A stretch of DNA of 64,000 nt, taken from positions 39,174 to 103,173 of IMG/VR virus record IMGVR_UViG_3300008255_000114; one strand, 5' to 3'. Numbering within the stretch: the stretch's first letter is position 1; every line of letters starts with the position of its first letter. Shown here one piece after another: positions 4,287 to 35,150 of the stretch. The position numbers and the translations under genes are program-made. The notes under the pieces were generated by a model. It searched no databases and had not been told where the DNA came from. It saw only the letters and a list, made by a program, of their open reading frames with translations. This stretch comes from a virus.

Positions 4287-4529
4287 TTGATTTATGTAGA
4301 GAATAGAAAGCCAGTGGTACCTATTGAATACGAGGGTAGTTTCACACAAGAATTAGGTATTGCCGAAGATAAGTGGCAAGATACTTCTGACATGGAAATC
4401 TACCAATTATTGGGTTACAAAGGTACAGAGTGGCGACTTAAAATGCAGAATGAACATATCGGTGATGCTATGTGGGACCAGAGTGGGTTCGAGCATACTT
4501 GGTCAGAGTTTGATACGGAAAGTGTATAA
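4287..4529 (+). CDS. hypothetical protein
   Basis: GAGGTG RBS, TTG start. Confidence 0.6.
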   Translation: MIYVENRKPVVPIEYEGSFTQELGIAEDKWQDTSDMEIYQLLGYKGTEWRLKMQNEHIGDAMWDQSGFEHTWSEFDTESV

Positions 4530-4549
4530 TTTAAATAAGGAGAAGTTGG

Positions 4550-6850
4550 TTGAGTAAAATAGTGAATATTATTAAGCGTGATGGAAGTAAAGTACCTTTT
4601 GAACCAGAGAAATTAAATAAGTGGGGTGAGTGGGCTACTAAAGCAGACCTAAGTTGGTCAGAGATTGTATTAGATACCTTAGATAATTTATATGATGGTT
4701 GTTCTACTAAAGATATTCACCAAGCTATGATTAATGCATGTGTAGATAAGAAAAATGAAAAACACCTAGAATTTGCTGCTCGTTTATTACGGGGTGATTT
4801 ATATAAGAAAGTTTACGGTTCTGACAAACCAACTAAATTCTCAAGTAAATACCTACAATTGGTAAAAGAGGGACACTGGCAGGATTTTAATTTAAGTCCA
4901 GAAGATTTGGAAAAATTAGATTCTGTGGTTGACCCAGATATTGATAAGACATACGAGTACACCTCCTTATTACAATTCATAGACAAATACGCATTAAGTA
5001 GATATGTCAAAGGTGTTAAGGTTCCAGTAGAGACACCCCACCTAGCTTTGATGGGGATTGCTTTAACTTTATTTAGAAGTGATAGTTTGTTTCATGTAGA
5101 AAAATTCTATAATATTATTAAATATCGAAAAATTAATATCGCAACACCTATCATGGCTGCAGCACGTACAGGTTTTAATGAGTTTACTTCTTGCTTCCTA
5201 TCTACTGCAGGAGATTCTCTAGGGAGTATTATGGCTGGAACTAACCTAGCATATACTATGACAGCTAACCGAAGTGGTGTTGGTTTTGAGTTCGATATCC
5301 GATCTCATGGGGATGTAGTAGGTAACAATAAATGTAAACATGCTGGTAAGTTACCTCATTATGAAATGCTACTAAAGACTATTAAGTCAGTCACACAAGG
5401 TGTTCGTGGTGGTGCTGGTACAGTATACTTTAATGTATTAGACCCAGAGTTTGATGATCTGGTCAGATTAAAAAGTCCTACCACACCATTAAGTAAACGT
5501 ATTGAATTAATGGACTACTCTTTGATGTGGAATAATGATTTCCTCTCACGAGTAGCTAAGAATGAAGATTGGTTATTAGTCAGTAAAGTTGATAAACCTT
5601 TATTACACGAGGCTTTCTATAATAACCGAAGTGAATTCCCTAAGTTAATGGAAGAAGCGCTTAATGAACATAGTAGAAAACCTTCAATCAGTGACTTACT
5701 TAAACCAGACTTTATTGCAATAAAATCAACTGGAAAAGGTAAGGTAGTTAATGCCAGAGATATGTTTAAAGTATTCTTACAGCAAAGACAAGAAACTGGA
5801 CGTATCTATTGTGGTAATGTTGATACACTAAACGACCATACACCTTATAGTGAAGATGTTATCAGAATGTTAAATTTATGTTCAGAGACAGCACTACCTA
5901 CGCGAGGATTTAAAGGTGTGGAATCACTAAATAAACCCGTCCGCAAAGATGATGGTTTGGTAGGGTTATGTTTCCTACTAGCAACAGACTACGGTAAATG
6001 TGAAGAACATGAGGTTGATGAGGTTAACTATTATGCATGTAGAGCGTTAGATAATATTATCAGCATGACATCCTACCCATACAAAACCTTAGAAGATGTT
6101 GGCCTAAACTACCGCAGTATTGGGGTTGGTATTACAAACCTTGCGTATGTAATGGCAAAGAATAAGGTGCTTTACTCGTCTGAAGAAGGTCGTAACTTTA
6201 TTCATCGGTTAGCAGAAAGACACCAGTTCTCTTTATATAAAGCTAGTGTTTCATTGGCTAAAGAACGAGGTAAATTTGGTTGGTTTGATAAAACTAAATT
6301 TGCTAAAGGGTTAATGTGTGTTGATACTTACACAAAAGAAATTGATAAGCACCACTCTCAAGATCTATTGTGCGACTGGGATGGGTTGCGAAAAGAAATA
6401 AATAAATATGGACTAAGGTTCTCCACAAAAAGTGCCCATATGCCGTGCGAGTCTTCATCGGCGTGGGGTTATAGCACTAATGGTTTGTATCCAGTTAGAC
6501 AAGGTGTGCTGATGAAGTCTCGTCCAGAGGGATTGGTACCGTTCTTTGCACCTGAATATGAGAAGTATAAAGAATTCTACGAATTGGCTTGGGATATTAA
6601 TACACAAGATTTATACAAGGTGTATGGTATTATACAAAAGTTCACTTGCCAAAGTATTAGTGCCGATACCTATGTAGACTTTTCTAAACTAGAAAACGGG
6701 AAGGTTCAGATGAGTACAATGATGAAAGATATGCTATTCAGTATGAAGATTGGAATGAAGTCACATTATTACTCTAACTCTAAAACAGAAGATAAAACAG
6801 AATCTGGAAGTAAAGAAACAGACGCAGATTGTGACTCGTGTAAATTATAG
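4550..6850 (+). CDS. nrdA: ribonucleotide reductase class Ia, alpha subunit
   Basis: N-terminal ATP cone (IIKRDG), ATPIM, TSCF, QG.RGGA, NLCSE, MPCESSS and C-terminal CDSC. Confidence 0.96.
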   Translation: MSKIVNIIKRDGSKVPFEPEKLNKWGEWATKADLSWSEIVLDTLDNLYDGCSTKDIHQAMINACVDKKNEKHLEFAARLLRGDLYKKVYGSDKPTKFSSKYLQLVKEGHWQDFNLSPEDLEKLDSVVDPDIDKTYEYTSLLQFIDKYALSRYVKGVKVPVETPHLALMGIALTLFRSDSLFHVEKFYNIIKYRKINIATPIMAAARTGFNEFTSCFLSTAGDSLGSIMAGTNLAYTMTANRSGVGFEFDIRSHGDVVGNNKCKHAGKLPHYEMLLKTIKSVTQGVRGGAGTVYFNVLDPEFDDLVRLKSPTTPLSKRIELMDYSLMWNNDFLSRVAKNEDWLLVSKVDKPLLHEAFYNNRSEFPKLMEEALNEHSRKPSISDLLKPDFIAIKSTGKGKVVNARDMFKVFLQQRQETGRIYCGNVDTLNDHTPYSEDVIRMLNLCSETALPTRGFKGVESLNKPVRKDDGLVGLCFLLATDYGKCEEHEVDEVNYYACRALDNIISMTSYPYKTLEDVGLNYRSIGVGITNLAYVMAKNKVLYSSEEGRNFIHRLAERHQFSLYKASVSLAKERGKFGWFDKTKFAKGLMCVDTYTKEIDKHHSQDLLCDWDGLRKEINKYGLRFSTKSAHMPCESSSAWGYSTNGLYPVRQGVLMKSRPEGLVPFFAPEYEKYKEFYELAWDINTQDLYKVYGIIQKFTCQSISADTYVDFSKLENGKVQMSTMMKDMLFSMKIGMKSHYYSNSKTEDKTESGSKETDADCDSCKL

Positions 6851-9128: not shown

Positions 9129-10091
9129 ATGGACACTACACAGGTGACTAGGAAGGGTAATACACTTACCCTAGTTGATAAGATTATGGTGAAAAGCAGG
9201 ACACACTTTATAGTGTCATGTGATATCTGCTCTAAGGATACAGAGGTTTATAAAGAAAACTTCCTTACAGTAAAGACCAGTTGGGATAAAGGTATCATAC
9301 CTTGTGGTTGTTCAGGACATTATAAATATAATGAAGCACAAGCTATTATATTGGCGACAAGGAGGTGCACTAATAAGGATAAGAAATTTCATGGTTTTGC
9401 TGAAGAATTCACCAATATTTCAAAGACAAAAGTGAAAGGGCACTGTGATATACATAATAATACTACATGGGATAATATATTTAATTATTTGAAGACAGAC
9501 AAAGAGTGTCCTGATTGCTCTAGGAGAAACATAATATTTGGGGTAGGTATCAATGATACCAAAGGTGCAATAGATGGTTGCCCATATTTTAAAATATGGT
9601 ATGGTATGCTTAAGCGATGTTACCATCCACCATGCTGGGTAAGAAGTCCTACCTACAAAGGTTGTGAGGTACACCCAGACTGGTGGAAATTTTCAAAATT
9701 TAAAGGTTGGATGAAGAAGCAGGATTGGCAAGGTAAGCAACTAGATAAGGACTTACTGTTACAGGGTAATAGGGTGTACAGTAAAGATACTTGCATATTC
9801 ATAACCCATAGGATAAATTGTTTTATTAAGACAAATATTAACCCCAACAAGGAACTTCCTATAGGGGTTACAAAAACTAGAAGTGTAGGTTACGAAAGCA
9901 ATTGCTGTGGTATCTATTTGGGGTCTTTCACTGATGTTGAGGGTGCACATCTAGCTTGGCAGAAAAGTAAGGTGAATACAGCTATAGATCTTTTGGAGGG
10001 ACAAGAATTTCGTGTACAAATTAAACTCCAAAGTATTATAGATAATATAAATGATGATATTACCTCTGGTAGGGTAACTCAGTGGTTTTAA
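9129..10091 (+). CDS. putative HNH-type homing endonuclease
   Basis: W.GMLKRCY, YKGCEV..W..FS.F..W and LDKDLL..GN..YS.DTC; N-terminal Cys clusters. Confidence 0.75.
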   Translation: MDTTQVTRKGNTLTLVDKIMVKSRTHFIVSCDICSKDTEVYKENFLTVKTSWDKGIIPCGCSGHYKYNEAQAIILATRRCTNKDKKFHGFAEEFTNISKTKVKGHCDIHNNTTWDNIFNYLKTDKECPDCSRRNIIFGVGINDTKGAIDGCPYFKIWYGMLKRCYHPPCWVRSPTYKGCEVHPDWWKFSKFKGWMKKQDWQGKQLDKDLLLQGNRVYSKDTCIFITHRINCFIKTNINPNKELPIGVTKTRSVGYESNCCGIYLGSFTDVEGAHLAWQKSKVNTAIDLLEGQEFRVQIKLQSIIDNINDDITSGRVTQWF

Positions 10092-10165
10092 ATAAGGAGG
10101 TACATGGCATAATTTAATTTCGTAAGTAAGAGTAGTCCTATAATTAAATAACACTGGAGAATACT

Positions 10166-19388: not shown

Positions 19389-21533
19389 ATGGCAATTCCA
19401 GTAGTAATAGAAACAGAAGTTTATCAAGGTAAATCAAGTCGTTCAGCTAATTTTGGTATGGAGTTTTCCGCTAAGTTAGCACGTACGCTATCATCCACAT
19501 TGTATGACTATAAAATTGAAGCTTGTATTCGAGAGTATGCTACCAATGTTACAGATAGTCACAACGATTCTGGTAAGCGGGGTTTGGCTGGGTACATACA
19601 TCTACCAACTAAAATGGAACCTTGGTATGAAGCAGAAGACTTTGGCTTAGGTATGACAGAAGATACCATTTACTCTATCTTCACAGTATATGGTAAGTCT
19701 ACTAAAGAAGGTAATAACAGTACGAATGGAAACCTTGGTTTTGGGAGCAAATGTGGGTTTAGCGTAGGAGGCCAGTTCACAGTTACCTCTATGAAGGACG
19801 GTATTAAAACTGTTGTAGTGTGTTATAAAGATAAATCTGGTGTTCCTGCTGCAGATACGAAATCCATCACTAAAACTACTGAAGGTAACGGAACTAGAAT
19901 CCGTGTACCTGTAAACACAAAGGATATCAGTGCTTGGCAATTAAATGGAGCTAAGGTATTAGGTGCTTTTGAAGTACCACATAAAGTTAATAGTTTTGGT
20001 TTGTATGGTGCAGAATATGAAGCTACACGAGAAATATGTAATCGTGCACGTCAAGAAGGTAGTATTTACTTAGATAGTAATAGTCTAGGTGAATTTGAAC
20101 ATAGAGATACTCGCTTTGTATTAATGGGTGATGTATTATATGCAGTCCCTTCATGGAAAGATTTAGTACGGGTTACTGGTTTGAAGGATGTGTCTCACAC
20201 TATGACAGATAGCGGAGTTTACATTACACACTTCCCCATTGGGTCTTTAGATTTTGCACCAAGTAGGGAGACTATTAGTTTAGACGAACAGACTTTTTCC
20301 TTATTAAGTAAACGTGTCACTAGTGATGTCATTAAATACTATCGTACCCTTATGAGTGAAGTTACTAACGAAGATAGCTCTAGTTGGTACCTATTCTACA
20401 AGAAGTTCTATGGAACCACTGTGTGGTCTGCATTGGCTGATTATAAACTTCCCTTTACCGATGGTTGGACTTTACATAGAACAACACCAAATAATTACAG
20501 TTACAACGGGACATTCACAGGTAATAAAATTCACCTAGTACCAAAAGACTTTAAGCTTAGTGGGTTAGTCCCTCCAAATAAAAAAGGTATTGGTGGTACA
20601 GCTTTTAATACATCGGTTGAATGGTTACACCAAGAAAGATTATCTCGTATGGATAATGTGGTGTTAGTATACAGCGACAAGGAAGAAGGTCTTAATAAAA
20701 AGAAAGAAGTATTGCAGTTAGTTAATGATAAGTTCCCAGACTCTAATGCTATTCTATACTGTCAGCACAAAACTATGTTAAATAATGTTGCTAAGTGGTT
20801 TGGGGTTCCTCCAGAACGTACAGTATGTGGTGATGAGTTCGTACCTGTAAAGGTACGCAAGGTTAGAGCTAAAGGTAGTAGTCGTGGAGGTTTTGGTATC
20901 ACAGAAGACTTCTACACTGTCGCCACCACCCTCACACAAAATGGGCAAGTACATGGTAAGGTGGATTTATCTGAAGATGGTATTTTCTACGTTGACGGTA
21001 AATTATTAGAGGTACAAGGTTACAATACAGTACATACTTTTAGTGACAATAGCTTAGTTAGGAAGTTACCCCACTTAGACACTCTTGGTATTAATAAAGT
21101 AATCGTTGCCAATAAAAATAATATTGGTAAAATAAAGCGTAATGGTGTACCTTGTTTATCCAAGCACTTATCCTCTTTAGTTAAGAAGAAAGTTAATACT
21201 GTTGTGAAATGTCAAGTAGCTTCTACTGCAAGACTTGGTTTGGACTATAAACAGAAGGCTGTGGCAGATAAGGTTAAAGGTTATACTAGATTCAACAAAC
21301 ATCTAGACAAGTTGAAAAAGGATAATGACCTAGCCACAGCTATTTTAAGTATTAGTGATTTTGGTGTTGGTACTCTACCTAAATATAAGGAAGAGAAAAG
21401 TAAACTCACTACTCTACGTACAGCAGTGTTCGATGATCTACATGACATTAAACAGAGATTACCATTGTGGGATAGTATAAGTAATGAAGATGACTTTAAC
21501 TACTACCTGAAACTTGAAAAATTTATTAAATAA
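19389..21533 (+). CDS. rIIA: rIIA-like protein
   Basis: GHKL-like N-terminus: LSSTLY, IREYATN..DSH, DFGLGM, YGKSTK, GNLGFGSK; also LDFAPSRETIS. Confidence 0.9.
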   Translation: MAIPVVIETEVYQGKSSRSANFGMEFSAKLARTLSSTLYDYKIEACIREYATNVTDSHNDSGKRGLAGYIHLPTKMEPWYEAEDFGLGMTEDTIYSIFTVYGKSTKEGNNSTNGNLGFGSKCGFSVGGQFTVTSMKDGIKTVVVCYKDKSGVPAADTKSITKTTEGNGTRIRVPVNTKDISAWQLNGAKVLGAFEVPHKVNSFGLYGAEYEATREICNRARQEGSIYLDSNSLGEFEHRDTRFVLMGDVLYAVPSWKDLVRVTGLKDVSHTMTDSGVYITHFPIGSLDFAPSRETISLDEQTFSLLSKRVTSDVIKYYRTLMSEVTNEDSSSWYLFYKKFYGTTVWSALADYKLPFTDGWTLHRTTPNNYSYNGTFTGNKIHLVPKDFKLSGLVPPNKKGIGGTAFNTSVEWLHQERLSRMDNVVLVYSDKEEGLNKKKEVLQLVNDKFPDSNAILYCQHKTMLNNVAKWFGVPPERTVCGDEFVPVKVRKVRAKGSSRGGFGITEDFYTVATTLTQNGQVHGKVDLSEDGIFYVDGKLLEVQGYNTVHTFSDNSLVRKLPHLDTLGINKVIVANKNNIGKIKRNGVPCLSKHLSSLVKKKVNTVVKCQVASTARLGLDYKQKAVADKVKGYTRFNKHLDKLKKDNDLATAILSISDFGVGTLPKYKEEKSKLTTLRTAVFDDLHDIKQRLPLWDSISNEDDFNYYLKLEKFIK

Positions 21534-21544
21534 TTGGAGGATTT

Positions 21545-22444
21545 ATGAGTAACCGTAGCGATATTGTAAAGTGTAAGACACAACAGGAAAAGGTTGATAT
21601 CTTTAATCGGTATAACAAACAGCAGCATAAGAACAAAACTAAATTAGCCAAACGGGTGGGCATCTCACTTCGTACACTAAATAGGATATTAAAAGAGTTT
21701 GATACTGATGTCGTAGGTATTCAAACGAAAGTAGATAATTATGATTACACTGTAACCAAAGACGCCATCACTATCTTCTGTAATGAAGATTCTCGCTTGG
21801 TGAATAAAGGTTACCCTAAGTTCAAAACTATCAGAAGTAAATTAATCAGTGAAGATTTCTCTGATGAGGTACTAAAAGAAACTTTTGAAATGTTATCACT
21901 ACCTACTTTTATTGAAAAGTTTAGTGAGGGTAATATTACAGTGTCGCATGAAGAGGGTAAAATCTTTTATGGTACGTTTGAGATTAAGAATAGTCTAGTC
22001 ACACACATGTTTGATATTATGTCTAGAGGAGAGGATGTAATGCCGATGGTGCGCTTCTTAGACATGCTTATGGATAACCCTAAAGAATCTATCGTGGAAG
22101 AATTGTATCCCTTCATGCAGCACAACGATATTGAAATTAATGAGGATGGAACCATTAAAGCATATCGTAATGTCACTATGGATTATAAAGACCACCACAC
22201 TGGTACAATGGATAATTATATTGGTAAGGTAGTTAAGATGCCGAGAACTATGGTTGACAGTAATCCAAACAACACTTGTTCTAGTGGTATTCATTGTGCA
22301 TCTATTGGTTATGCTAAAGGTTTCGGTGGTGGACGTCTTATGGAAGTAATGGTAAACCCATCACATGTGTGTTCAGTACCTACAGACTACAGTGGTATGA
22401 AAATGCGAGTTTGTGAACTTAAGGTTGTCAAAGAGGTGACTTAA
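21545..22444 (+). CDS. rIIB: rIIB-like protein
   Basis: N-terminal HTH; FL..LM.NP, ELYPF, EDG.I.AYR, NTCSSGIH and VCSVPTDY. Confidence 0.9.
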   Translation: MSNRSDIVKCKTQQEKVDIFNRYNKQQHKNKTKLAKRVGISLRTLNRILKEFDTDVVGIQTKVDNYDYTVTKDAITIFCNEDSRLVNKGYPKFKTIRSKLISEDFSDEVLKETFEMLSLPTFIEKFSEGNITVSHEEGKIFYGTFEIKNSLVTHMFDIMSRGEDVMPMVRFLDMLMDNPKESIVEELYPFMQHNDIEINEDGTIKAYRNVTMDYKDHHTGTMDNYIGKVVKMPRTMVDSNPNNTCSSGIHCASIGYAKGFGGGRLMEVMVNPSHVCSVPTDYSGMKMRVCELKVVKEVT

Positions 22445-24204: not shown

Positions 24205-24498
24205 ATGAATACAACTAAAATGTCTGCTGTGTTTCACAAGGGTTATATAGAGGCAGATTTTAATAATGGGTCTATATTGGAAAACGGTTATCCTATTTTT
24301 GTGGGCGGTTGTGGATATAAAGCTAAAGCTATTGTACTCGCAGTTAACTGTTATGATGAATTAGTAGAAGATAATAAGTTATTACGTGACACACTGTTAC
24401 ATATTGTAATGAAAGTAGAGATGATTGGTGGTTTTCCTGACAAAGGGTTGTTGAAGGAAGCTAGGAGTCTTATAAGTAAATTAAGTGAGGAGAATTAA
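24205..24498 (+). CDS. hypothetical protein
   Basis: GAGGAG RBS before ATG 24205. Confidence 0.55.
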   Translation: MNTTKMSAVFHKGYIEADFNNGSILENGYPIFVGGCGYKAKAIVLAVNCYDELVEDNKLLRDTLLHIVMKVEMIGGFPDKGLLKEARSLISKLSEEN

Positions 24499-24499
24499 A

Positions 24500-25555
24500 A
24501 TGTCTACACAAAAATTAAGTCTTGTTGCATACAATACAGAGAAGGGTTTGTACTACGCAAACTCTAAATGGAACTACCTTAAGAAGCGTGACAGTATTTG
24601 CAATGTAACTTTAATAAACGGTAAACCTTTAGTTGAAAGTGAACACAAAAGTGATTGGTACTTCTTAGAAGGTGAGAGTGAAATAACTTCTATTAAAAAG
24701 AATCAATCTGGTGGTTATGGAGAAGTATCTTGGGTATTACGAGATGAATCCACACACATTGAGGGTGTTATTCCTAAAGTGCTAACTCCTATTGAGGCTG
24801 ATGAAATTGATGAAGATTGTGATTGGTACATTGGCTCTGAAAGTAAGTATTATGCTTACAGAGGATTATATCACCGTGTCAAAGACAGACTGCCAGATGT
24901 CATGATTGATGTCGAATATGAAGTAGATTACAAAGGTACTATTGAGCACACTTTAGTTGAGAACAATTTCAAGGATATGAAGGTTCGTGTTATTACTAAA
25001 AACTTTTACTCTGATAAAGTAGTTGAGAATAACATTACTTCAGTTGCACATTACTATGAACTTGAGGAGTTATTAACACCAGACTTAGTGTTACACAATC
25101 GTCCATGTTATATCAACCAAGACAATACTTATAACATTGTACGCAACTATATTAAGGAAAACATTAACCCTAAGTATGCTAGGGTGAGTGCTGACTATGA
25201 CTTCTGCCTCACTGTAAAGAAACTAATTCACATTAAACCTTTTGTGAAGAGTACAGAGACTAAAAAGAGTAATGGTAGAAGTTATGCTAAACCTAAATTT
25301 AAAACACAAACAATCTCCACTAAAGAAGTAGAAATATTTGAAATGTGTCCAAGTAAGAAGTATAATACCTACACACCAATTGACGGTTTCAAAGGTGATA
25401 GCCTTGCAGACTTAGTGGAGAATATGAAGTTATACTTAGGTACTTTAATGGATACAATCAACGCTCCAGTACATGAGTGTGAGTCCTGTGGTGGATTAGG
25501 TTGTACATATGACAAAGTAGATGATATTAATATTAGAGGGAGTGATAGTAAATAA
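24500..25555 (+). CDS. hypothetical protein with C-terminal CxxCxGxG
   Basis: GAGGAG RBS; 351-aa ORF. Confidence 0.7.
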   Translation: MSTQKLSLVAYNTEKGLYYANSKWNYLKKRDSICNVTLINGKPLVESEHKSDWYFLEGESEITSIKKNQSGGYGEVSWVLRDESTHIEGVIPKVLTPIEADEIDEDCDWYIGSESKYYAYRGLYHRVKDRLPDVMIDVEYEVDYKGTIEHTLVENNFKDMKVRVITKNFYSDKVVENNITSVAHYYELEELLTPDLVLHNRPCYINQDNTYNIVRNYIKENINPKYARVSADYDFCLTVKKLIHIKPFVKSTETKKSNGRSYAKPKFKTQTISTKEVEIFEMCPSKKYNTYTPIDGFKGDSLADLVENMKLYLGTLMDTINAPVHECESCGGLGCTYDKVDDINIRGSDSK

Positions 25556-26122: not shown

Positions 26123-26216
26123 CATAGAAGATATAAAGTGCAGAGTGTTTGGTTTAGGGAATAACAAGCCTCCTACCATCATTGAAGTTAGGTTTACTAA
26201 GAGTTAATATATCACC

Positions 26217-26253
26217 ACACCACTTCAGTATAACAATTGAGGTGGTGTTTTTC
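26217..26253 (+). terminator. rho-independent terminator ending the + strand block
   Basis: ACACCACTTCA...TGAGGTGGTGT followed by TTTT. Confidence 0.7.
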
Positions 26254-26496
26254 TATGTATATCCTACGACTTAATAGGAAGCGTTTTAAGACATCTTACA
26301 CAATACCCTCACAACCACAACACTTCTTAAATATATCCTCTCACAGCTTCATACAGCTCACCTCATTACATTATAACACACTAGTTTACACACCATTTAA
26401 TATTAGATACCAATATTAATATAGAAAACATTGTTTTTAATCTAGTTAGATAACGATTACAACTGTAATACTTTAAACTGAATGTGTTAATTAACA

Positions 26497-26675
26497 CTGT
26501 ATATTTGTACAGTTATAATATTATTGTGTACACTGTTCATTATCTAATGTGATAGTGGAATATAAATACTACTGTATATTCATACATCACTGTACATATA
26601 AACAGGTATATTAAATAATGATATCAATACTTTGTATACTGTATTAATAGACTAATACACTGTATATAACCACAG
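26497..26675. promoter_or_regulatory. cluster of LexA (SOS) boxes
   Basis: CTGT-N8-ACAG at 26497 (CTGTATATTTGTACAG), 26590 (CTGTACATATAAACAG) and 26660 (CTGTATATAACCACAG); one-mismatch copy at 26572. Confidence 0.8.
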
Positions 26676-27221
26676 TAGTTTTATTCTAATGTTATTACTA
26701 TTGTAGTTTAAACTATCGCACCTTTCTGCAAGATAATATTCATCATACCAACCCAGTTTCTGAAAGATACCAACCCCTCCCGATTTTACCAATCTAAATA
26801 TAGCACCCCATTCTTGTATAAACCCCTACATAAAATATCCTACACCAGTATACACATCACCGAATATCATTGTAGCTTCCATAGAAGCCATCTAAGAGGC
26901 TGTAACACTATTAGCAAGGCCAATGTACTAGTATATAATTATAACTTAACTACGGAGCTTACAGGGATTATAGGGTGTATGATAAATTTATAATGTTGAG
27001 GATAGAGAAACACCCCCCACCCCCTATTTTGGGGGTAATAAAATGGCACCCCTGTTTGTCCCTATGTGGGACAGAAAATATCTATATGTTACACCTTAGG
27101 TGTGGGGATTAATGGAGTCTGATGGGATTAATGGTGGCACCTGAGGTGCAATAGTATAGTGATGAGTGGGGTTATAATGTGGGGAAATTCTAAGTTCTAT
27201 TGTCAAGCCATTAAGCAACTA

Positions 27222-27518
27222 AATGAGACTCATTATCATTCGCATTCAAATCGCCGAATATCGATAACACCCTTCAACCCCTTGCTGTGCCTACAATCGG
27301 CACCAACCTAGACCAATACTCACCACAAACTAACTTTATTCAACCTCGTTAACCTTTACCCAGTTTTAATACACATGTATAACCTGAGTTAAATACGAAT
27401 GATTATTATTAACCCACTATTATAGTTGAACCTAAACGGGGCAATTAATTACATTTGTAAATGATAACACTTATCATTTGTATTAGTATTCACAGTGCAA
27501 ATGGTAATGATTATCATT
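27222..27518. promoter_or_regulatory. cluster of Fur boxes
   Basis: 19-mers matching AATGANAATNATTNTCATT at 27222 (1 mismatch), 27392 (3), 27460 (2) and 27500 (1). Confidence 0.75.
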
Positions 27519-27588
27519 AGTGTTATTGTTCTATATTGTGGCGGTGTTAGCCACCAACTGTATAATAGTGTGATGCTATGCATCAAAG

Positions 27589-27667
27589 GTGAAGGGATGA
27601 AAGATTGTTAAGCATAACCTCGTTCGTTTCACTCACTCGTTAGCTCGCCAACTTCATCCGTCATCAC
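27589..27667 (-). ncRNA. candidate structured RNA or DNA hairpin
   Basis: outer arms GTGAAGGGATGAAAG / CTTCATCCGTCATCAC; lies just downstream of a minus-strand TATAAT at 27687-27692; no ORF. Confidence 0.3.
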
Positions 27668-28006
27668 AATTTAAAAGTTACCTACCATTATACTATTGAA
27701 CCAACGGTTCTACTTTTAATGTTAGTTAACCTAACGGTTATAAGTAAAGCCTTACATTACCATCTAATCATATGCTCAACACTTCTAACACTTAGTCACA
27801 CAGTGACAACCATTATATTATTGCACCTAATTGGTGCCAACATAATAAACTATGCACATCCTGTGCCAATTAAATTATAGTATTAAACACAGCATTACAT
27901 TAGCTAATTACAATATTAATTGTAAGCCTCTTAAATAGCGATTTAAGCTATTATCTTGTTTACCTTTACATTGGTATAGAAAGAAATAGATCGTTGAAAT
28001 TAGGTT

Positions 28007-28059
28007 TTATCCACAGAGTTACTAACAATGTATAATTGTTTATGTATAACTTATCCACA
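28007..28059. promoter_or_regulatory. DnaA boxes, putative origin element
   Basis: perfect TTATCCACA at 28007 and 28051; one-mismatch inverted box at 28041. Confidence 0.7.
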
Positions 28060-28363
28060 TTTTAATAGTTGTTGACATAATCTAATTCGTATATGTTGCA
28101 TTTCAATAGTTGGGGAAATTATTAAATTCGCGATAGCTAAGGATCTCCTACGTGGTTCAAATTGACCTATGGTGAAAGTACATTGTTTAACCAATAGTAC
28201 GGCGTTACTCTAACCTCTTATAAAGAGTATTTATCAATTGTGAACCTTGGTGCAATCAACAGTATTATGTCGTAATAGTAATATTAATGATTTGGTATTG
28301 TTGTGTAGGTGTTTTATAACTGGTATTATTATTGCATAGGTACATAAAAGGAGTAATACACAC

Positions 28364-28576
28364 ATGATTAATGACAATACACTAGAAGCTTACACAAAGA
28401 GTTTTAACTTATCTCATCAGACTAGGGAACTTGTAGACGACCTTTTAACAGGTAAGGTGACTACTGACCAATTCAATAGCAGGAAGTACCGTGCAAGACA
28501 GGCTAAAAAGTTGGGACTGCTATTTGACATGGTTATTGCTTATGAACTGTTTATCCTTCTTAAAAAGTCATTATAA
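28364..28576 (+). CDS. hypothetical protein
   Basis: AAGGAG RBS. Confidence 0.65.
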   Translation: MINDNTLEAYTKSFNLSHQTRELVDDLLTGKVTTDQFNSRKYRARQAKKLGLLFDMVIAYELFILLKKSL

Positions 28577-28581
28577 TATGT

Positions 28582-29316
28582 ATGGTGGCATTAAAAGATA
28601 CATTCGACAAGATACCTACCATACTCAGACAAGCTGAAAAAGTACTCCGTATAGATGTTGCACAAGGTAGGGAGTTAACCCTTAAATTAGATTTATCACA
28701 CAAGATAATCTACTGCTACCTGTTTGCTCGTTTTAATTACAATACAAGAAAGAAAGTTAAAACAGCAATGAGTATTGAGTATATAGCCTTACAGTGTGGT
28801 ACTAGTGATTCAACAGTTAAACGTAAAATTAAAGACTTTAAAGAATTTGGAATAATAACCTATTCTACAAGTAGGAGTAAGTCAGGGCATAATTCTAGGT
28901 GTTTGTATTCTGAAGTTGTAGATCTTGTTAATGATGATAGGTACAAATTACAATCCGCCCAATTAACTAAGTTTTTCCGCAATGCTGAAAGTAAGCGCGA
29001 CTACCTACTAGACTTGTTTAACAATGAAAAAACTGATCCTAGTTGGTCAAGTTTACAGCTCAAGTATTTCTTACTTAATAAACATTATGAATTGATGACA
29101 GGTTTATACCTTCAAGGTGATAAGACATCTAACATACTTTATGACAAGAAAGTGTTTGGTGTTAAGTTTTCAATGCAAGATGAACTTAAAGACGGTGATT
29201 TTAAAATTCTCTTTGATTTGAGAAATGAGCAAAGAGATAATTTGATAACTGAAAATGATGAGGAACTACAAGCCAATGATAAACAAGTGTACGACAGGGA
29301 ACTTGAAAACTTTTAG
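28582..29316 (+). CDS. winged helix-turn-helix protein, possible replication initiator or origin-binding protein
   Basis: KIIYCYL...SIEYIALQCGTSDSTVKRKIKDFKEFGII; adjacent to DnaA boxes. Confidence 0.6.
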   Translation: MVALKDTFDKIPTILRQAEKVLRIDVAQGRELTLKLDLSHKIIYCYLFARFNYNTRKKVKTAMSIEYIALQCGTSDSTVKRKIKDFKEFGIITYSTSRSKSGHNSRCLYSEVVDLVNDDRYKLQSAQLTKFFRNAESKRDYLLDLFNNEKTDPSWSSLQLKYFLLNKHYELMTGLYLQGDKTSNILYDKKVFGVKFSMQDELKDGDFKILFDLRNEQRDNLITENDEELQANDKQVYDRELENF

Positions 29317-34119: not shown

Positions 34120-34599
34120 TTAAAAATACTTTGATAAAAACTTCCCACAATACCAATTGAATGATTTCTCACAATCAATAACATGTTTAACACCTTCAAA
34201 CGTCACATGGTAGGCTTTCTTTCTGAGGTCAAAGCGTTCTTGCAGTCTCTCAATTAAAACCCCGTGATCAGCTTGTGAAGGCGTCCAATCGTTACAAGCT
34301 ACACTCTTTAAGTGTGGTGTTAAGTAATACAGATTAACTTTAATTTTAGAATTAAAAGTAATGCCGCGTTTTCTTAATTCCTTTCTGATCAATCTGTGAC
34401 GTCTTGCAAGGTATAGAAGTTTATCCCTGAAAAACATTACATGACCCGTATTTAAAGTATATTGATCAGGTATTTTATTAATGGTAAACCGTTGCGGGTG
34501 TTTTTCTAATTCGTTTACAATGCGAGGCAATTCCCGCCATTCTGCGGTCAGCCATTCGTTTGTTAAGTCGGACGGGTGAACCGTGTTAATACGTGTCAT
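34120..34599 (-). CDS. denV: pyrimidine dimer DNA glycosylase (endonuclease V)
   Basis: MTRIN, L.AEWRELPRI and YTLNTGHVMFF.DKL.YL..R. Confidence 0.9.
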   Translation of the reverse strand: MTRINTVHPSDLTNEWLTAEWRELPRIVNELEKHPQRFTINKIPDQYTLNTGHVMFFRDKLLYLARRHRLIRKELRKRGITFNSKIKVNLYYLTPHLKSVACNDWTPSQADHGVLIERLQERFDLRKKAYHVTFEGVKHVIDCEKSFNWYCGKFLSKYF

Positions 34600-34815
34600 A
34601 CTGTAAACCTTGTTAAGTGTTGTTTAATTGCGTCCACTATATAGAAGGATAAAACAAAAGTAAACAGGTAAAGTTATTCATATAACGGTGTTGTATTCTT
34701 AATTTAATTATGTATAATGGTTTATATCGAAAGACGAGAACGTCTATAAACTTCAGGTTACCAAAGGATATATCCGAGGGGCTTAATAATACGGGCTGCT
34801 ACTTTAAATTTGGTA

Positions 34816-34834
34816 AATGATAATGATTCTTATT
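34816..34834. promoter_or_regulatory. Fur box in the second non-coding region
   Basis: AATGATAATGATTCTTATT, 1 mismatch to the 19-bp consensus. Confidence 0.6.
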
Positions 34835-35100
34835 CAGTCAAATTAGTGGATTTCTAGAATAATTGACTGAGTATGACTAGGTGTTTTACTTTTCATGTTG
34901 GTCAAAATAAAGATCGTATTTGTTAGTTCGTGTTTAACTTTTCACGATTTCATATCTGTAATTGGTATTTGTCAGTTTTGCTTTTAAGCTTTCAATATAT
35001 GAATTCCGTACCACGTAGTTTATATTAGTCAGTGATACCTCATGTAACGTCCTACACAGAGTTATATTAGATTAGGTAGTAAATGGTATTACAACTAAAG

Positions 35101-35130
35101 AAAAGCCCTGCAGTGTTAACTGAGGGCTTC
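35101..35130 (-). terminator. rho-independent terminator
   Basis: minus strand GAAGCCCTCAG...CTGCAGGGCTTTT. Confidence 0.65.
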
Positions 35131-35150
35131 TATTATTATTTAAATTGTCA

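Follow-up and report, generated by a model that had tools for sequence, protein, structure and literature searches.

A gene-free stretch between two conserved phage modules

The 64,000-nucleotide (nt) window analysed here is part of a 103-kb IMG/VR virus contig that is kin to Shewanella phages 1/4 and 1/40, and its biggest gene gap, at 26210-28363, is the subject of this report (all coordinates are positions in the window unless a relative is named). The gap lies between an rII-side module and a gp2-gp4-like operon, a position that is kept in ICP1-like myoviruses, and it holds predicted LexA, Fur and DnaA sites together with a predicted terminal repeat. An original prediction, made from the sequence by itself, had taken this DNA for a protein-free sponge for the three host proteins. 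Our analysis suggests that it is probably the region, conserved among ICP1-like phages, that holds the genome end, the packaging sequences and a replication origin, with the sites acting in cis.

We found no open reading frame (ORF) of at least 60 amino acids (aa) in 26210-28363, and the short ones that can be read there are not maintained in the closest relative, contig L004, which is about 90% identical over the gene-free stretch. One at 26814-26993 starts with TTG in the window and with CTG in L004, while a minus-strand ORF of 46 aa is disrupted by indels between the two. A tRNA search of the same interval returned nothing, an Rfam search returned no family at threshold, and the sign of the GC skew flips within the stretch. 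The original prediction of about 2 kb of DNA lacking a credible ORF, downstream of a terminator at 26217 and with LexA and Fur blocks that precede no gene, thus proved correct in each part, as no ORF follows either block. Scans of metagenome contigs and genome contigs yielded no further relatives; the sole 20-nt match that they produced (L009) lies on a GC-rich, unrelated contig and was set aside as a chance match.

From left to right, the gene-free stretch and the operon that follows it carry these features (strand given where one applies):

26217-26248, plus strand: intrinsic terminator (13 stem pairs, then a T run), unchanged in L004; it ends the upstream plus-strand operon (rIIA, rIIB, Gad1 and others).
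26491-26519, plus strand: predicted promoter P_A, with a -35 element TTAACA (26491-26496), LexA box 1 (26497-26512) and a -10 element TATAAT (26514-26519); 11 of 12 hexamer positions match.
26572-26587: predicted LexA box 2, with one core mismatch; perfect in L004.
26590-26605: predicted LexA box 3, with a perfect core; one nt further on lies a -10-like TATATT (26607-26612), at the same offset as after box 1.
26660-26675: predicted LexA box 4, with a perfect core and a weak -10-like TAGTTT directly after it.
26911-26965, plus strand: promoter-like site with TTAGCA and TATAAT separated by 17 nt; after it come 30 nt that phages 1/4 and 1/40 share at 87% identity.
27020-27161: four G/C-rich hairpins (27020-27035, 27059-27073, 27091-27103 and 27137-27149).
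27214-27609: predicted direct terminal repeat and packaging region of 396 bp, with a left edge TTA^AGCAAC and a right edge ATTGTT^AAGCA (caret, cut position).
27224-27516: cluster of predicted Fur boxes, with 7-1-7 boxes at 27224-27238 (12/14), 27462-27476 (12/14) and 27502-27516 (13/14), and a weaker match near 27395-27412.
27538-27554 and 27572-27584: two hairpins just before the right cut motif, in the same place in all six phages compared, with differing stem sequences.
27720 to 27686, minus strand: palindrome-plus-promoter module reading leftwards into the repeat.
27840 to 27812, minus strand: palindrome-plus-promoter module (TTGGCA, 17 nt, TATAAT; 11 of 12 positions), also leftwards into the repeat.
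27869 to 27842, minus strand: palindrome-plus-promoter module, again reading leftwards into the repeat.
28007-28015 and 28051-28059, plus strand: two perfect, co-oriented DnaA boxes, TTATCCACA, 44 nt apart.
28058-28130, plus strand: two 32-nt direct repeats (family D5; 78% identity, 41 nt spacing), candidate iterons.
28364-28576, plus strand: gene for a 70-aa protein, the positional counterpart of ICP1 ORF2 (weak match, E 0.001).
28582-29316, plus strand: gene for a 244-aa winged-helix protein, homologue of ICP1 ORF4/gp4 (28% identity, E 1e-24).

Paired TTAAGC motifs and a predicted terminal repeat

The evidence that places this stretch at a genome end comes from its relatives. Phages 1/4 and 1/40 have exact direct terminal repeats of 381 bp, whose edges read TTA^AGCAAC and ATTGTT^AAGCA. 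Since the window carries the same pair of motifs, the equivalent segment would be 27214-27609. Spacing between the two TTAAGC motifs is 397 nt in the window, 382 nt in phage 1/4 and 462 nt in ICP1, and the left cut motif reads TTAACC in L004. When viral contigs were searched for the repeat-end pattern, it was common to only four phages.

For ICP1 itself, the section on termini in one published account gives PhageTerm ends at 431 (plus strand) and 891 (minus strand), next to a predicted rolling-circle origin (PMC7145576), and corresponding passages of another study describe two cut sites flanking a high-coverage segment of 577 bp (PMC11417361). The first 2.6 kb of the ICP1_2006_E genome (L015) contain just two copies of TTAAGC, one at 428-433 and the other at 890-895. 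The published ICP1 ends fall at TTA^AGC and TT^AAGC, a nucleotide-exact match to the edges of the repeats in 1/4 and 1/40. This location of the ICP1 termini within TTAAGC is the strongest single result of the analysis, and it points, by homology, to 27214-27609 as the terminal repeat or packaging segment of the phage in the window. It also raises the possibility that packaging in ICP1 involves cutting at TTAAGC and a direct terminal repeat of some 461 bp, and not a simple headful packaging (pac) site; keyword look-ups in the ICP1 papers found no mention of Fur boxes or of TTAAGC in the passages searched. In a further sequence (L012), TTAAGC lies at 586-591 and 1048-1053.

The DNA next to the right cut is built alike in the six phages: a Fur-like palindrome, two or three hairpins and the cut motif, in this order, make up the final 100-135 nt, and the hairpin stems co-vary.

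A conserved cluster of Fur boxes inside the predicted repeat

With the Fur motif taken as the 7-1-7 palindrome TGATAAT-N-ATTATCA or the 19-bp consensus, six of the 15 best Fur 19-mers fell within 27219-27503. Three 7-1-7 matches with at most two mismatches were observed against 0.07 expected, a count reached in none of 1000 dinucleotide shuffles of the gene-free region, which served for all of the enrichment tests. All of the Fur block falls within the predicted terminal repeat, where its sole overlap with promoter-like sequence consists of -10-like hexamers inherent in the motif.

The block is also the most widely shared of the site arrays. Aligned Fur-box positions are kept in 1/4, 1/40 and ICP1, and clusters of 7-1-7 boxes were found in the terminal gene-free region of six out of six phages. 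L004 and 1/40 possess perfect boxes (14/14), while the best boxes in the window, ICP1 and the Vibrio phage PWH3a-P1 score 13/14; four of the eight matches genome-wide in PWH3a-P1 are packed into 1.1% of its genome. Some of the boxes in relatives lie close to genes: a perfect one about 58 nt upstream of S140_239 in phage 1/40, and one of 13/14 about 30 nt upstream of the gp2-like gene of PWH3a-P1. Phage 1/40 retains its Fur boxes although it has no gp4-like protein, which argues for host Fur, rather than the gp4-like protein, as their ligand. The idea that the boxes are operators for gp4/Rep is weakened by the same observation, and by the fact that S140_239 is not homologous to the gp4-like protein.

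Further Fur-like sites were seen away from the cluster. L004 carries an insertion of 1.08 kb (L004 positions 4432-5510) directly after its second DnaA box. Within this insertion are a short gene on the minus strand, which has a terminator of its own and encodes 78 aa of no known family, and three Fur-like boxes, of which the one at 5299-5313 is perfect (14/14). In the window, a gene for a T4 DenV-like pyrimidine-dimer glycosylase (34120-34599; Pfam Pyr_excise, E 8e-16) is followed by another gene-free stretch of 550 nt (34600-35150) with a Fur-like box at 34818.

LexA boxes and a predicted recA-type promoter

The whole 103-kb contig has four perfect CTGT-N8-ACAG cores, and three of them, at 26497, 26590 and 26660, lie within 180 nt of one another (three observed versus 0.03 expected; reached in 0 of 1000 shuffles). 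The boxes have an AT-rich spacer and differ from the 20-mer consensus at four to five positions each. Exactly four perfect cores are present in the L004 contig, all of them in the gene-free region, and the differences between the two contigs are confined to box spacers or convert ACAT to ACAG, improving the core.

LexA box 1 is the predicted operator of a recA-type promoter, P_A. Read from the genome, the recA promoter of E. coli K-12 consists of TTGATA, CTGT-N8-ACAG and TATAAT; in this SOS promoter, as in P_A, the -35 element abuts a LexA box that fills the spacer and is followed by TATAAT. In L004 the core of box 1 and the -10 element are kept, with changes only in the box spacer. Unlike E. 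coli recA, P_A precedes no gene and has three further LexA boxes downstream of it. The predicted promoters of this module read rightwards, across the hairpins and into the predicted terminal repeat. No LexA core was found in the equivalent regions of 1/4, 1/40, ICP1 and PWH3a-P1.

Because the contig encodes no homologue of LexA, of S24 peptidases or of Fur, host proteins are the likely ligands of the predicted sites.

DnaA boxes, direct repeats and an initiator-like gene

The two perfect DnaA boxes account for two of the three copies of TTATCCACA in the contig. Perfect boxes were expected 0.05 times in the region, and two of the 1000 shuffles reached the observed count. The first box is kept in L004, where the second reads TTATCAACA. 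Together with the direct repeats, the boxes lie 250-350 nt upstream of the operon for the 70-aa and 244-aa proteins, which, if the sites function as predicted, would be the usual layout of an initiator-dependent origin.

The 244-aa protein, an identical copy of which is also encoded on a contig of 129.7 kb, matches PHROG replication-initiator families, and a search with Pfam RepA_N gave no sequence match to it. A structural model from a 16-sequence alignment had a predicted local distance difference test (pLDDT) score above 90 over most of residues 31-90 and of at least 77 over residues 11-120. The best structural match of its N-terminal domain was 4RO3 (Foldseek E 1e-4; VIA-align Z 12.9, root-mean-square deviation 2.4 Å over 111 residues), followed by the RepA_N initiators 4PQL, 4PT7 and 5KBJ at Z 8-9, which is barely above generic winged-helix proteins (Z up to 8.3). 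According to the relevant part of PMC7145576, 4RO3 is the N-terminal domain of RepA from the ICP1 satellite PLE, a proven iteron-binding initiator. On the strength of this model the 244-aa protein is a candidate replication initiator with a RepA_N-like N-terminal domain, and the PLE initiator and the gp4-like protein of its helper family may share ancestry or DNA targets.

Hairpins, orphan promoters and neighbouring genes

Between the LexA module and the repeat, the last of the G/C-rich hairpins (27137-27149) is joined to a 13-mer, CAATAGTATAGTG (27149-27161), which points rightwards into the terminal repeat. Exact copies of the 13-mer CAATARTATARTG occur three times in the window, only in the minus-strand modules and at 27149 on the plus strand, and 11 of the 17 hairpin-plus-(-10) modules of the genome fall within 26888-27866. 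We discarded the palindrome-plus-(-10) module as a general phage promoter, since its genome-wide count equals that of shuffled sequence and the exact 13-mer is local only.

The hairpins appear to be maintained as structures: between the window and L004 the G/C-rich hairpins change in their loops, or in compensatory fashion in their stems. The segment 27590-27700 is 100% identical between the two contigs, and L004 has a 111-nt duplication of the module at 27686-27720. On the plus strand, RNA folds of 26945-27215, 27522-27722 and 28095-28365 were no better than those of shuffled sequence (z -1.1, -1.7), whereas minus-strand folds of the first two of these segments reached z -3.2.

Taken together, these comparisons support the view that the LexA, Fur and DnaA sites in the sequence are real features, non-random and of consensus quality. 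The original prediction located LexA boxes at 26497-26675, Fur boxes at 27222-27518 and DnaA boxes at 28007-28059, and all three arrays were recovered, the first as three perfect cores and one site with a single mismatch, and each in excess of shuffled sequence. Its C/G-rich palindromes at 27010-27190 are likewise present, at 27020-27149. The conservation of these motifs among relatives was uneven: Fur clusters recur in every phage compared, but LexA and DnaA boxes only in the window and L004. Palindromes that it had labelled NtrC/sigma54-like, at 27135 and 27822-27869, do exist, but the label fails. The minus-strand copies have the wrong -24/-12 spacing when tested as GG-N10-GC, TGGCAC-N5-TTGCW or TGCACC-N5-GGTGCA, and in L004 two stem pairs of the hairpin at 27137 are changed on both arms, which keeps the hairpin and loses the TGGCAC and TGCACC words.

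Upstream of the stretch lie rIIA (19389-21533) and rIIB (21545-22444), and, just before it, a gene for a 356-aa protein (24485-25555) that matches Pfam Gad1 (Gabija anti-defence 1; E 2.6e-94).

A probable genome-end region with sites that may act in cis, and its alternatives

If the stretch is a genome-end, packaging and origin region, its sites more probably have their effect on the phage genome itself, and a sponge for host proteins is the less likely role. Read from left to right, the layout would be a terminator, a LexA/SOS module, hairpins, a 396-bp repeat with Fur boxes, leftward orphan promoters, DnaA boxes with direct repeats, and an initiator gene. Terminase would cut at both TTAAGC motifs, leaving Fur boxes at every virion end. 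Host proteins would work in cis: LexA may shut the rightward orphan promoters until the SOS response, Fur may bind in the repeat and at early promoters as iron status dictates, and DnaA may support origin initiation by the phage initiator. Transcription that enters the repeat from either side would serve origin firing or junction processing rather than gene expression, and any titration of host LexA, Fur or DnaA would be a by-product.

Several points weigh against this reading. The ends of this phage are placed by reference to its relatives, and the ICP1 authors, in the passages concerned, interpret the terminus as a headful pac site rather than a terminal repeat. The orphan promoters are predictions, as are the LexA, Fur and DnaA sites. 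Conservation of the LexA and DnaA boxes extends no further than the window and L004, and a -10-like hexamer after two of four LexA boxes is only modestly unlikely by chance (P ~0.04). A -10-like TATCAT is inherent in the Fur half-site, which makes promoter overlap in the repeat weak evidence. Finally, the transcriptome study of ICP1 places its abundant non-coding RNAs elsewhere, not in the gp1-gp2 space (PMC7567579).

Two of the alternatives would have the stretch act in trans. Under the original prediction, multiplying phage genomes would titrate LexA, Fur and DnaA, so that SOS functions and iron uptake are derepressed and oriC is starved, and this trans effect would be what selection has favoured. 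The sites are indeed of high quality and clustered, with no ORF after them, and the phage turned out to carry neither a LexA nor a Fur gene; that multicopy operators titrate their proteins is well established, and four LexA boxes in at least 100 genome copies would be comparable to the LexA pool of a cell. Clusters of Fur boxes are seen in each of the six phages and, under the predicted repeat, a virion genome would carry them twice. Yet every block has a plausible context in cis, at the terminus, the origin or a promoter: LexA box 1 is a predicted promoter operator, some Fur boxes of relatives occupy the promoters of real genes, phages 1/4, 1/40, ICP1 and PWH3a-P1 lack the LexA and DnaA arrays, and two DnaA boxes are few for a titration locus. 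ICP1, moreover, is described in the passages concerned as degrading the host chromosome while it replicates (PMC11417361), which would leave little host transcription to derepress at high genome copy number. Given the positional and motif homology to the ICP1-like terminus/pac and late-origin region, the Fur block within the repeat and box 1 within a promoter, a purpose-built sponge is not supported, and we regard it as very improbable. It is also quite unlikely that the orphan promoters make non-coding RNAs acting in trans, one SOS-induced from P_A and another Fur-controlled, running from about 27524 to the hairpin at 27698-27710. Promoter-like sites, a terminator-like hairpin and the full identity of 27590-27700 in L004 are what such RNAs would call for, and ICP1 is known to express abundant non-coding RNAs (PMC7567579); but those reported for it map elsewhere, Rfam recognised none here, folding stood out on the minus strand only, and a role at the DNA level explains the hairpins equally well.

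The other two alternatives stay closer to a function in cis. The Fur-like palindromes could be repeats for a phage protein such as the small terminase (TerS), in the manner of the lambda cosB R sites beside cosN: three or four of them are found at distances of 100-390 nt from the cut sites, their order agrees among six phages, and the ICP1 pac region is described as nearly invariant and its TerS as unidentified (PMC9040626; PMC11417361). This is unlikely, however, for boxes that match the Fur consensus at 14 of 14 positions in L004 and 1/40 and at 13 in the window, ICP1 and PWH3a-P1, that in some cases belong to promoters of small, unrelated genes beyond the repeat, and that persist in 1/40 without a gp4-like protein. 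Alternatively, a nucleoprotein of LexA, Fur and DnaA might dock at the entering genome end, where it would pause or anchor injection, shield the end from RecBCD, or aid circularisation via the repeats. With termini at 27214 and 27609, Fur boxes would lie at both ends, the DnaA boxes about 400 nt from the left end and the LexA boxes about 0.9-1.1 kb from the right end; as all three site types fall within about 1.1 kb of a predicted virion end, a function in cis at the end that enters or is packaged merits serious consideration as a version of the main explanation. The injection-stop region of phage T5 has the same triad of sites, and a model in which DnaA stops injection has been proposed for it (bioRxiv 10.1101/866236). 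The case is one of analogy with an unrelated phage, and the LexA and DnaA boxes are lineage-specific; docking as such seems unlikely. On balance, the genome-end, packaging and origin region, with its sites acting in cis, remains the reading that we favour.

Comparison with known systems

By its sequence, the region appears to be a variant of the known terminus, packaging and origin element of ICP1-like phages. With ICP1 it shares a gene-free stretch that precedes the homologous ORF2-like and gp4-like genes, a pair of TTAAGC motifs, which in ICP1 lie at the mapped termini, and Fur-like palindromes followed by hairpins before the right cut. The two differ in that the orfless space of ICP1 lacks LexA cores and perfect DnaA boxes, its motifs are 65 nt further apart, and its packaging is headful in the part of its authors' account cited above. 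In both ICP1 and PWH3a-P1, a gene-free stretch of 1.3-1.5 kb is likewise followed by a small operon and then by small minus-strand genes.

The Shewanella phages 1/4 and 1/40 (NC_025436, NC_025470) have a gene-free stretch of about 2.4-2.5 kb across the ends of their records, with the same boundary motif at their repeats and with Fur-like boxes and hairpins within them; 1/40 differs in the absence of a gp4-like gene. Where the window has LexA boxes, phage 1/4 (L002/L003 junction) has instead two GACATATTATGTC palindromes, and TGTCAT-N7-ATGACA occurs twice to the right of its repeat. A GTCAC-GTA-GTGAC palindrome is identical in 1/4 and ICP1.

Multicopy Fur boxes, as used in the Fur titration assay (FURTA), and the E. 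coli datA locus titrate Fur and DnaA, respectively. The window resembles them in holding a cluster of high-affinity-type sites on DNA able to reach high copy number, and departs from them in having only two DnaA boxes and in the placement of its sites within promoters, in a terminal repeat and beside a predicted origin.

In its content of host-factor sites, the region parallels the injection-stop region and Repeat Regions of the left terminal repeat of T5, which are likewise untranslated terminal DNA with repeats, palindromes and LexA, DnaA and Fur sites. In the T5 sequence (AY543070; L016), the annotated injection-stop region (9140-10149) contains one perfect LexA core (9411), one perfect DnaA box (9510) and a pair of Fur boxes (9658, 9699). 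A second untranslated stretch, at 6121-6228, has two DnaA boxes and the same LexA 16-mer, CTGTATAAATATACAG, as the injection-stop region (features 9411-9713). Davison has proposed that membrane-bound DnaA at the T5 boxes stops injection (bioRxiv 10.1101/866236). T5 is nevertheless an unrelated phage without sequence homology to this one, with a 10-kb, protein-coding terminal repeat and two-step injection.

For the ICP1 group, where the small terminase and the packaging mechanism remain unsettled, TTAAGC offers a nucleotide-level candidate for the terminase cut motif, and the DNA between its copies one for a short direct terminal repeat. In phages of Vibrio and Shewanella, clustered consensus Fur boxes appear to be a conserved component of the terminal repeat; one lineage would have added a LexA-gated orphan promoter and DnaA boxes, arriving at the same LexA/DnaA/Fur triad as in the injection-stop region of T5. 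The recurrence of this triad in unrelated phages suggests that, at the ends of their genomes, phages make use of DNA-binding proteins that the host already has, a possibility that can be tested in phage 1/4 with S. glacialimarina, in ICP1 with V. cholerae and in T5 with E. coli.

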